Assembly (NCBI RefSeq): GCF_044647545.1
Contig: NZ_CP172818.1
Strand: one strand, 5' to 3'
DNA: 64,000 nt
Origin: Escherichia coli
GTDB lineage: Bacteria; Pseudomonadota; Gammaproteobacteria; Enterobacterales; Enterobacteriaceae
In this document: positions 50,617 to 53,571 of the stretch, piece after piece
How the letters are laid out: each line of letters starts with the position of its first letter
How positions within the stretch are numbered: the stretch's first letter is position 1
Position numbers and translations under genes: made by a program
Notes under the pieces: model-generated
What the model was told of the DNA's origin: nothing
Database searches by the model: none
Seen by the model: the letters and a program-made list of their open reading frames with translations, nothing else

Positions 50617-51744
50617 TTACTGCGGATATTCCTGCAATAAATTGTGTAATGCTTCCGCCATCAGCTCACCACGCCAGCCGGAAATCAGCTCCGGCAAATT
50701 GTTCTGCGGTTTCAGTTTCCAGTGCCAGTTCAGCAGTTGGTTGATTTGCCGACGCGATGCCAGCAATTCGGCGCTGATCTTGTGCGTTTCGCTCACGTCA
50801 GTAATCAGCGACTTAATCGCTTTAAACGCTTTACGATAACCCGGCATGTCCATCAGGTTAAGCATCGGCTGCGGTAAGGCCTCTTCCGGCAATGTCTGCG
50901 CTTTTTCCACCAGCGCCAGCAGCGTTTTACCGTGAAAGCGGATTTCGCTACCGGATAAACCCAGGCTGTCCAGTTCGCCTAAACTTCCCGGCATATAACG
51001 CGCTACAGACCACAAATGCTCTTCACGCACGACAAAGTTCACTGCCAGATCGCGCTCCCGAGCCTTGCGCAGTCGCCAATCGGCTAACAGTTGCAGACAG
51101 GCCAGTTGGCGTGTGCGTAACTGCCAGGCATTGGTGATATCACGCCAGGCATCTTCCGGTGCAACGACTTCCTGACGACGCATTTGCATCAGGCGGCATT
51201 CATCCAGCGCCGCAGGTAGCCAGCCGGAGGCCTCCGTTTCTACCATAAGTTTTGCGGTGATCGGTAACAGATACCAGACATCCGCCGCTGCGTATTCACA
51301 CTGACGTTCGGTCAGCGGTCTGGCCAGCCAGTCGGTGCGCGATTCACTCTTGTCCAGCGTAACGCCGGAATACTCTTCCACCATGGAAGCGAAACCCCAT
51401 GACATCGGGCGTCCGCAGAAGGCAGCAAGGATTTGCGTGTCAATCAAGGGTTGTGGTAATTCGCCAAAGACATTGAGGAACACTTCCAGATCTTCACTGC
51501 CTGCATGGAGAAATTTTGTGATGGACGGATCGCGCAGGATCGCTTTCAGTGGTGACCAGTCGGAGATCCCGAGAGGATCAATTAGCGCCAGATGCTCACC
51601 ATCAAAAAGTTGAATTAGACCCAGTTGCGGGTAATAGGTGCGCGTACGAACAAATTCAGTATCCAGGGCTATCGCCGGAAAGGCACGGACGGCTTCACAC
51701 AAAGAAGCCAGCGCATCGTCCGTGGTAATCATTTGGTAATTCAA
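50617..51744 (-). CDS. rnd: ribonuclease D
   Basis: 375 aa; 3'-5' exonuclease DEDDy domain plus HRDC. Confidence 0.95.
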   Translation of the reverse strand: MNYQMITTDDALASLCEAVRAFPAIALDTEFVRTRTYYPQLGLIQLFDGEHLALIDPLGISDWSPLKAILRDPSITKFLHAGSEDLEVFLNVFGELPQPLIDTQILAAFCGRPMSWGFASMVEEYSGVTLDKSESRTDWLARPLTERQCEYAAADVWYLLPITAKLMVETEASGWLPAALDECRLMQMRRQEVVAPEDAWRDITNAWQLRTRQLACLQLLADWRLRKARERDLAVNFVVREEHLWSVARYMPGSLGELDSLGLSGSEIRFHGKTLLALVEKAQTLPEEALPQPMLNLMDMPGYRKAFKAIKSLITDVSETHKISAELLASRRQINQLLNWHWKLKPQNNLPELISGWRGELMAEALHNLLQEYPQ

Positions 51745-51768
51745 ATTGTATTCTCTTTAGTGGGCGTC

Positions 51769-51794
51769 AAAAAAAACGCCGGATTAACCGGCGT
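51769..51794 (-). terminator. rho-independent terminator after fadD
   Basis: Minus strand acgccgg-ttaat-ccggcgt followed by U8. Confidence 0.85.
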
Positions 51795-51855
51795 CTGACG
51801 ACTGACTTAACGCTCAGGCTTTATTGTCCACTTTGCCGCGCGCTTCGTCACGTAA
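51769..51855 (-). ncRNA. sroD: candidate 3'UTR-derived small RNA at the fadD 3' end
   Basis: Recalled that an ~86 nt sRNA named sroD was mapped between rnd and fadD in K-12; 3' end placed at the terminator U-tract, 5' end approximate. Confidence 0.35.
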
Positions 51856-53499
51856 TTCTCGTCGCAAAATTTTTCCGACGTTAGATTTCGGTAACTCATC
51901 ACGAAACTCCACCAGCTTCGGTACTTTGTAGCCCGTGAGCTGACGGCGGCAAAAGGTCACCAGTGACTCTTCGGTAAGCGATGGATCTTTTTTCACTACG
52001 AAGATTTTCACCGCTTCACCACTGGAGCCGGAAGGTACGCCAACAGCCGCGACTTCCTGTACGCCAGGATGCTGCATGACGACATCTTCAATCTCGTTGG
52101 GATAGACGTTAAAACCGGAAACCAGAATCATGTCTTTTTTACGATCGACAATGCGCAGGAATCCTTCTTCATCCATCACCGCGATGTCGCCGGTGTGTAA
52201 CCAGCCATTTTTGATGATTTCATCGGTAGCATCCGGACGCTGCCAGTAACCCAGCATCACCTGCGGTCCTTTGACACAAAGCTCACCTGGTTGACCCGGT
52301 GGTACTTCGTTGTCGTCGTCATCCACCAGTTTGGCTTCCGTCGACGGCACCGGCAAACCGATGCTACCACTATGATAATCAATATCATACGGGTTAACGC
52401 TGACCAGCGGCGCACACTCGGTCAGGCCATAACCTTCCAGCAGATACTGTCCAGTCAGTTTCACCCAACGTTCTGCCACCACTTGCTGAACAGGCATCCC
52501 TCCGCCTGCGGAAAGATGCAGACTGGAGAAATCCAGCTGCTGGAACTCTTTATTGTTCAGCAACGCATTGAACAAGGTGTTAACGCCAGTGATAGCGGTA
52601 AACGGATATTTCGCTAACTCTTTTACCAACCCTGGAATATCGCGCGGGTTAGTGATAAGCAGGTTCTGCCCACCCAGTTCGATAAACAGCAGGCAGTTAA
52701 TGGTCAGGGCAAAAATGTGATACAGCGGCAGCGCCGTCACCACCAGCTCTTTGCCCGGATGCAACAGCGGACCATAGGTCGCGTTAACCTGTTCCAGGTT
52801 CGCCAGCATATTGCGGTGAGTCAGCATCGCGCCTTTCGCCACACCAGTGGTACCGCCGGTGTATTGCAGGAAAGCTAAATCTTCCGGCACCAGTTCGGGT
52901 TTGACGTACTGCATCCGGTAGCCGCTGTGCAGGGCGCTACGAAATGAAATGGCATCTGGCAGATGGTATTTCGGCACCAGACGCTTGATGTATTTAACAA
53001 CGAAATTGACTACCGTGCCTTTTGCCGTAGATAGCTGATCGCCCATACGGGTCAGAATTACGTGCTGAACGGCGGTTTTATCAACCACTTTTTCCAGAGT
53101 GTGGGCAAAGTTAGACACGATAACAATCGCCGATGCGCCGCTATCGTTAAGCTGATGCTCAAGTTCACGCGGGGTATACAACGGGTTAACGTTTACGACA
53201 ATCATCCCGGCACGCAAAATGCCAAACAGCGCCACCGGATATTGCAATAAATTAGGCATCATCAACGCAACGCGATCGCCTTTCTTCAGTCCCAACCCTT
53301 GTTGCAAATAAGCGGCAAACGCGCGACTGCGTTCTTCCAGTTTGCGGAAGGTCATCACCTCCCCCATATTCACAAACGCGGGTTGATCGGCGTAGCGCGC
53401 GACCGACTGCTCAAACATATCTACCAGAGATTGATAACGGTCAGGGTTGATCTCCGTCGGAACGTCCGCGGGATAACGGTTAAGCCAAACCTTCTTCAA
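51814..53499 (-). CDS. fadD: long-chain fatty acyl-CoA synthetase
   Basis: 561 aa from TTG start with SD gaggtgaag; AMP-binding motif [12 protein letters not shown]. Confidence 0.95.
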
Positions 53500-53571
53500 T
53501 TCTTCACCTCTAAAATGCGTGTTCGTCGTCATCGCAACCCCAAATGATATACATGTTGTTAACATAATATT

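Follow-up and report, generated by a model that had tools for sequence, protein, structure and literature searches.

SroD at the fadD–rnd junction of Escherichia coli, a probable by-product of the fadD mRNA that overlaps the promoter and leader of rnd

The junction between fadD and rnd in Escherichia coli raises the question of whether the small RNA that maps to it, SroD, is conserved for a role of its own or for the functions of the genes on either side. The question is addressed here in a stretch of 64,000 nucleotides of contig NZ_CP172818.1, hereafter the window, which is E. coli DNA and not K-12 overall. An initial annotation of this DNA, made from the letters alone, had placed a strong minus-strand terminator in a 69-nt spacer between the two genes and had named an RNA of about 86 nt, SroD, mapped to this junction in K-12, that would extend over the last ~40 nt of fadD and whose function was said to be unknown. 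The two genes are arranged in tandem, as follows.

51814..53499, minus strand: fadD coding sequence, 561 aa from the annotated TTG (reading frame and annotation); its mRNA is the parent of SroD.
51816..51814, minus strand: fadD stop codon TGA (reading frame).
51745..51813, minus strand: fadD–rnd spacer, 69 nt.
51742..51757, minus strand: rnd ribosome-binding region, with the Shine-Dalgarno sequence AAGAGA at 51757..51752 and the TTG start codon at 51744..51742.
50617..51744, minus strand: rnd reading frame, 375 aa, TTG start (list of reading frames and annotation).

The spacer thus has the length first given for it. By BLAST, the fadD–rnd stretch is present in 5425 of 5426 complete E. coli genomes, where it is annotated as fadD and rnd. 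Between 51700 and 51900 the window differs from K-12 strain MG1655 by a single base, at 51750, which lies outside SroD, so the SroD sequence here is identical to the K-12 copy; MG1655 coordinates are obtained by adding 1836247 to those of the window. The longest fadD reading frame begins at an ATG at 53565 and would encode 583 aa. A published capped 5′ end of fadD at 1889807, equivalent to window position 53560 (SMRT-Cappable-seq, PMC6131387 supplementary file 4), lies downstream of this ATG and thus favours the annotated TTG at 53499 (561 aa), an arrangement in which both fadD and rnd are TTG-started. In an alignment of 66 distinct junctions the rnd start codon is TTG in 62 sequences and GTG in the other four, and alignment positions A102 and G103 of the ribosome-binding region are invariant in all 66.

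The feature at the junction is SroD, an already catalogued E. coli small RNA, and the identification itself adds nothing new.

51770..51855, minus strand: SroD RNA, 86 nt (full-length match to Rfam RF00370, Term-seq 3′ ends, identical to K-12).

The Rfam sroD model, RF00370, matches 51855..51770 of the minus strand over model positions 1–86 of 86 with 115.2 bits (gathering score 50 bits; E = 1.4e-22), and is the sole Rfam match above threshold in the window, all 64 kb of which was scanned. The model therefore puts SroD where it had been predicted and not elsewhere, at the 3′ end of fadD, upstream of rnd and on the same strand; it also scores above threshold in 18 of 20 diverse Enterobacteriaceae loci tested. 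The RNA consists of the last 39 coding nucleotides of fadD, the TGA stop codon and 44 nt of 3′ untranslated region reaching to the U-tail, which bears out both the size given for it and the overlap with fadD, and it occupies 1888017..1888102 in MG1655 coordinates. Term-seq recorded 3′ ends at 1888017, 1888018 and 1888020 on the minus strand under three conditions, labelled sroD/fadD (Adams 2021 supplements), which map to window positions 51770, 51771 and 51773; the same ends are tabulated 27–29 nt upstream of the rnd reading frame in file 3 of that study. In sequence (86 nt), position between fadD and rnd, and mapped 3′ end, the RNA shows no difference from the K-12 sroD of RF00370 and EcoCyc (G0-9384). 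RefSeq records of E. coli, including that of MG1655 (NC_000913.3, 1888017..1888102), carry fadD and rnd only and no sroD feature; sroD is present as G0-9384 in EcoCyc-based tables. Term-seq also recorded, in one condition, an internal 3′ end inside rnd at 1887883 (window 51636, minus strand), ~108 nt into the coding sequence.

SroD is probably a stable by-product of the termination and decay of the fadD mRNA, with no role of its own demonstrated and at most a minor role in trans. Among the evidence for this reading, the stretch of sequence that belongs to SroD alone is unconserved, the helices proposed for its 5′ part lack covariation, and its behaviour as a small RNA is weak. In the pathway envisaged, transcription of fadD stops at the intrinsic terminator formed by the hairpin at 51796..51774 and the eight U residues that follow, giving the 3′ ends at 51770–51773, a step that the Term-seq data document directly. 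An endonucleolytic cut 39 nt before the stop codon would then create the 5′ end at 51855; the site, GAA|UUA, fits the preference of RNase E for U at +2. The terminator hairpin would shield the fragment from 3′ exonucleases, and SroD would accumulate briefly when fadD is induced through loss of FadR repression and at entry into stationary phase. Its conservation would come mainly from the functions of its neighbours, namely the C-terminus of FadD, the promoter of rnd and the rnd leader, in which the U-run would act as the reported translational enhancer and the hairpin and U-run would be enclosed by a covarying outer helix. That the 5′ end is a processed end is something we infer, and this counts against the by-product reading.

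The terminator on which this pathway depends comprises two elements.

51774..51796, minus strand: hairpin of 9 bp with the loop UUAAU, serving both as the intrinsic terminator shared by fadD and SroD and as a segment of the rnd leader (terminator scan, folding, covariation, RNAalifold).
51769..51776, minus strand: U8 tract, the terminator tail and 3′ end of SroD and most likely the U-rich translational enhancer of rnd (from the sequence; an A-run on the plus strand).

A terminator scan returned one minus-strand site, with a stem at 51796..51774 of nine pairs (six of them G-C), a loop of 5 nt and then eight U; the hairpin alone has a folding energy of -14.9 kcal/mol. In the 1-kb region the simple terminator pattern is not above chance (1 site vs 1.2 +/- 1.1 in shuffled sequence), and the terminator noted in the initial annotation is accepted as real because of the covariance-model match (E = 1.4e-22), the covarying stem and the Term-seq 3′ ends. 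Across the 66 distinct sequences the stem is 99.4% paired with compensatory changes at two pairs, and RNAalifold also recovers the hairpin. The longest T run measures 5–9 in all 66 sequences and is 6 or 8 in 62 of them. The site thus has a G+C-rich stem-loop with a U-tract directly after it and RNA 3′ ends within the tract, as an intrinsic terminator does.

The origin of the conservation of SroD was examined in 80 Enterobacteriaceae loci collected via RNase D. In all 78 loci with upstream DNA, fadD lies directly upstream of rnd, usually across a spacer of 67–74 nt, and the hairpin and U-run are kept. In the alignment of the 66 distinct junctions (A1), invariant columns are concentrated in the parts of SroD that are shared with a neighbouring gene: 18 of 39 columns in the fadD coding part, 8 of 23 in the stem and loop of the hairpin, and 4 of 6 in the rest of the U-run. 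From the stop codon to the hairpin, which holds the only part private to SroD (nt 43–55), none of the 23 columns is invariant and seven contain gaps. The sequence 3′ of the U-run, beyond SroD, is also conserved.

The 5′ part of SroD shows little sign of a selected structure. This wider sample of Enterobacteriaceae gives poor support to the two 5′ helices in the Rfam consensus, which are only 72% paired, have one pair broken in 33 of the 66 sequences and show no covariation. RNAalifold predicts no structure within nt 1–59, and the fold of nt 1–60 is not unusually stable (z = -1.3). A conserved 5′ domain, whether as the Rfam helices or as the minimum-energy fold, was accordingly rejected (69–73% paired, no RNAalifold support, z = -1.3).

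Much of the constraint on the coding part of SroD can be traced to a promoter of rnd that is embedded in the end of fadD.

51846..51851, minus strand: -35-like hexamer GTGACG, in fadD codons -12/-11 and SroD nt 5–10, invariant in the 66 sequences.
51823..51828, minus strand: -10-like hexamer GACAAT, SroD nt 28–33, 17 nt after the -35-like hexamer.
51816, minus strand: rnd transcription start, at the first base of the fadD TGA, 7 nt after GACAAT and 72 nt before the TTG.

The start was mapped by SMRT-Cappable-seq as the 5′ end, at 1888063 on the reverse strand, of a transcription unit that contains b1804 (rnd) alone; the same file lists fadD units from 1889807 and 1891294 and no fadD–rnd unit (PMC6131387 supplementary file 4). 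Position 1888063 corresponds to 51816 in the window, and relative to it GTGACG occupies -35 to -30. The 17-nt spacing of the hexamers and the distance of 7 nt from the -10 to the start are those of a sigma-70 promoter, and the hexamers match the consensus at 8 of 12 positions. No promoter was called in 51400..52400 by the default scan, the cut-off of which is 9/12, and this weakness of the rnd promoter (8/12, uncalled) is a further point against the by-product reading. The invariance of GTGACG extends to the synonymous sites T6 and C9. In GACAAT, neither the A at position 2 nor the T at position 6 ever varies; the motif persists as AACAAT in Cedecea and Siccibacter, where residues of the FadD tail differ, and in another reading frame in locus L080.

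The same signal is evident in codon usage. Among 76 Enterobacteriaceae species, codon choice is frozen for 8 of the 13 degenerate codons that fall within the final 15 of fadD, vs 3 of 425 in the preceding 485 codons (Fisher p = 6.5e-12). The frozen bases fall into two blocks, CGAGAA...CGTGACGAAGC and AAAGTRGACAATAA, which contain GTGACG and GACAAT. The promoter and transcription start of rnd therefore lie within SroD and explain much of the nucleotide constraint, but not all of it. Frozen synonymous sites outside the hexamers speak against the by-product reading, as does the fact that the invariant nt 4–14 are contiguous and unpaired, as a seed would be.

Other details of the frozen codons can be noted. 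The sites outside both hexamers are CGA GAA (codons -15/-14), GAA (codon -10) and AAA (codon -6), and the second Arg is encoded by the rare CGA throughout. Of the 68 species with Asp at the corresponding position, 67 use GAC, and GAT never occurs there, though GATAAT would be a stronger -10, which is another point against the by-product reading.

Downstream of this start, the terminator of fadD becomes part of the leader of rnd, and this point, like the presence of the rnd promoter and start inside SroD, was absent from the initial annotation. According to passages of PMC7769764 and PMC5934652 that cite Zhang & Deutscher 1992, the UUG-initiated rnd mRNA carries a U-rich translational enhancer, which those passages give without coordinates; the U-run is cited as being needed for binding of the 30S subunit and for synthesis of RNase D. 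Along the rnd leader in the window, the start at 51816 is followed by the hairpin (51796..51774), the U8 tract (51776..51769) and the TTG at 51744, with the hairpin and U-run lying 25 nt before the TTG, an order that fits the enhancer layout as cited. Zhang and Deutscher are said to have described, in 1992, a G+C-rich hairpin and then eight U between the rnd promoter and the start codon; the element found here likewise has a G+C-rich hairpin and U8 between the rnd start and the UUG. The tract at 51769..51776, which we take to be the U-rich element of Zhang and Deutscher, is thus most likely the reported translational enhancer. As far as the citing passages convey it, Zhang and Deutscher treated the element as part of the rnd mRNA, whereas here it is also the terminator and 3′ end of the fadD mRNA and of SroD.

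The leader contains one further element: the hairpin and U-run are enclosed by an outer helix that goes without mention in the literature found on the rnd leader element.

51796..51800, minus strand: 5′ arm of the outer helix, CGUCA, SroD nt 56–60.
51765..51769, minus strand: 3′ arm of the outer helix, UGACG, beginning at the last U of the tract and extending beyond the SroD 3′ end.

The outer helix is 86% paired in alignment A1, and four of its five pairs are changed on both sides. Its arms read CGUC/GACG in Escherichia, CGCC/GGCG in most genera, UGCC/GGCA in Kluyvera, CACUC/GGGUG in locus L037 and CGUUC/GGACG in locus L043. Together, the helix and hairpin contain six pairs with double changes vs 3.0 +/- 1.0 in shuffles, of which 5 of 500 reach six, and slid controls give 0–2; RNAalifold, unprompted, recovers three of the outer-helix pairs. 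Because the 3′ arm lies beyond the 3′ end of SroD, the outer helix can form only in RNA that has read through the terminator, that is, in the rnd leader.

Rearranged loci point in the same direction. In the Citrobacter loci L010 and L017, an insert of ~160 nt separates the hairpin from the U-run, with duplication of the hairpin; the copy on the fadD side has no U-run, the copy on the rnd side retains U8, and the outer helix is disrupted in these insertion-bearing lineages. L080 has a different terminator after fadD, with the canonical hairpin and a U6 tract adjoining rnd, and in L008 the canonical hairpin is preceded by an additional one. In all four loci (L008, L010, L017, L080) the hairpin with its U-run stays beside rnd, and the element therefore belongs to rnd too. 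We infer from these comparisons that the conservation of SroD is largely borrowed from the coding function of fadD and from the expression signals of rnd.

The principal rival to the by-product reading is that SroD is a 3′-UTR-derived, Hfq-dependent RNA that base-pairs in trans, with a seed at nt 4–14 (CGUGACGAAGC), and that on release during fadD induction it adjusts other mRNAs during fatty-acid use or entry into stationary phase. Small RNAs of this kind that are processed from a parent mRNA include CpxQ, from cpxP, and SroC, from the gltIJKL mRNA. Like them, SroD uses the terminator of its parent, follows the regulator of the parent promoter, has its 5′ end in the parent coding sequence and ends in a U-rich tail. 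It departs from the class in lacking a reported target, a proven dependence on Hfq and a conserved non-coding seed, and in that its conserved bases overlap the promoter of the next gene.

Published observations bear on both sides of this comparison. In favour of a function in trans, nt 4–14 form an invariant, contiguous and unpaired block of 11 nt that extends past the -35 hexamer, the terminator is strong and ends in a U8 tail, and an ARN motif has been reported at nt 31–54 (PMC5575007). SroD also accumulates in a growth-phase-specific manner, being up in the transition phase in fermenters, and it occurs in chimeras from Hfq RIL-seq, a re-analysis of which lists 31 and 20 chimeric fragments for sroD and a U-tract of 8. 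Its presence in Hfq chimeras and an 8-U tail typical of Hfq-binding small RNAs likewise weigh against the by-product reading. On the other side, these fragments involve a single partner, and the sRNA scores of 0.041 and 0.025 fall under the authors' candidate cut-off of 0.1. The RNA is absent from the portion of the Hfq CLASH supplementary text that could be consulted and goes without mention in the accessible main text of the RIL-seq paper of 2016, and the literature found assigns it no target. Overexpression of SroD gave no biofilm or motility phenotype, although a few negative screens leave room for a function, and the -35 region of the mapped rnd start falls on the invariant block.

Published accounts class SroD as a processed product of fadD. 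The sroD sequence is encoded at the fadD 3′ end and is dispensable for a fadD-dependent PldA phenotype (PMC5874903). SroD has been listed among small RNAs processed from longer transcripts, as 'generated from 3′ UTR' and with its function entered as 'Unknown', in agreement with what the initial annotation had stated, and its level is raised in a mutant of fadR, the product of which represses fadD (PMC8313858). Taken with the evidence above, a dedicated trans-acting role for SroD is rather unlikely, and the by-product reading is preferred.

A second rival treats the hairpin, U-run and outer helix as a single device of the rnd leader with two jobs, ending transcripts that arrive from fadD (and so releasing SroD) while passing those begun at the rnd promoter for translation from the UUG, with the invariant 11 nt in the 5′ part of SroD as a possible seed in trans. 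Were this so, the device would couple the synthesis of RNase D to the activity of fadD. The behaviour it supposes resembles the read-through of terminators that depends on the transcription start site (Yan et al. 2018, PMC6131387), in which transcripts from two starts likewise run into a single terminator; in the transcription units of that study the fadD units end before rnd and the unit from 51816 runs through into rnd. Read-through fractions for the fadD–rnd junction do not appear in the part of that work consulted. The literature found mentions no outer helix here and no dependence of this terminator on the start site, and the combined proposal is doubtful.

That SroD is instead a primary transcript, made independently of the fadD mRNA from its own promoter inside fadD with a start near 51855, is highly improbable. 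The sequence GAGAAT (51860..51855) resembles a -10 element and the CGA GAA codons there are invariant, but it has no -35 partner, the promoter scan found nothing, and a start directed by it would fall ~7 nt downstream of 51855. In the many species that use CTN codons for Leu, C replaces the last T of GAGAAT, with loss of the key T at -7, and SroD both follows FadR, the regulator of the fadD promoter, and is listed as a processed small RNA (PMC8313858). As a -10 for SroD, GAGAAT at 51860..51855 was rejected on two of these counts, the missing -35 and the loss of the final T with CTN Leu codons.

There is equally slight reason to regard the RNA ending at 51770 as a prematurely terminated rnd leader with the hairpin as an attenuator of rnd, since although the rnd start at 51816 lies only 20 nt before the hairpin and rnd-started RNAs stopping within the U-run would have the 3′ ends seen by Term-seq, such RNAs would measure 44–47 nt and not ~86 nt, the Rfam model begins 39 nt upstream of the rnd start, and SroD rises in the fadR mutant (PMC8313858). 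An attenuated rnd leader of 44–47 nt may coexist with SroD.

The by-product reading carries a modest caution for catalogues of small RNAs: where an RNA family lies at a gene end, its conservation may be due entirely to signals of neighbouring genes that overlap it. At this locus the overlapping signals are the leader element of rnd and a promoter concealed within the final 15 fadD codons, and where conservation comes from such signals it is, by itself, no argument that the RNA regulates anything. The locus also shows, in compact form, a single hairpin and U-tract that terminates one gene and most likely enhances translation of the next. The points added here, namely a promoter within a small RNA, a probable dual-use terminator and enhancer, and a covarying outer helix, are of local value only.

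Two features of the spacer in other genera were also recorded. In genera other than Escherichia and Citrobacter, the U-run has the sequence UUUUUUAUGGGCGC and thereby gains an AUG ~30 nt before rnd (loci L023–L027 and other Enterobacter loci). The ATG of UUUUUUAUGGGCGC was considered as an alternative start of rnd and rejected, as it is in frame in Enterobacter, runs into a stop codon in Klebsiella and is absent in Escherichia; judged from the sequences, the AUG is probably not a start codon. The second feature is the Citrobacter insert. In L010 (2770..3000) and L017 (2770..3000), the 20-nt hairpin sequence ACGCCGGGTGAATCCGGCGT is directly duplicated on both sides of the insert, which itself contains the inverted repeat GAGGTGATC...GATCACCTC and a second hairpin, and L008 (2890..3000) has only the second half of the insert. 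The insert has the appearance of a small mobile element or repeat for which the hairpin was the target.
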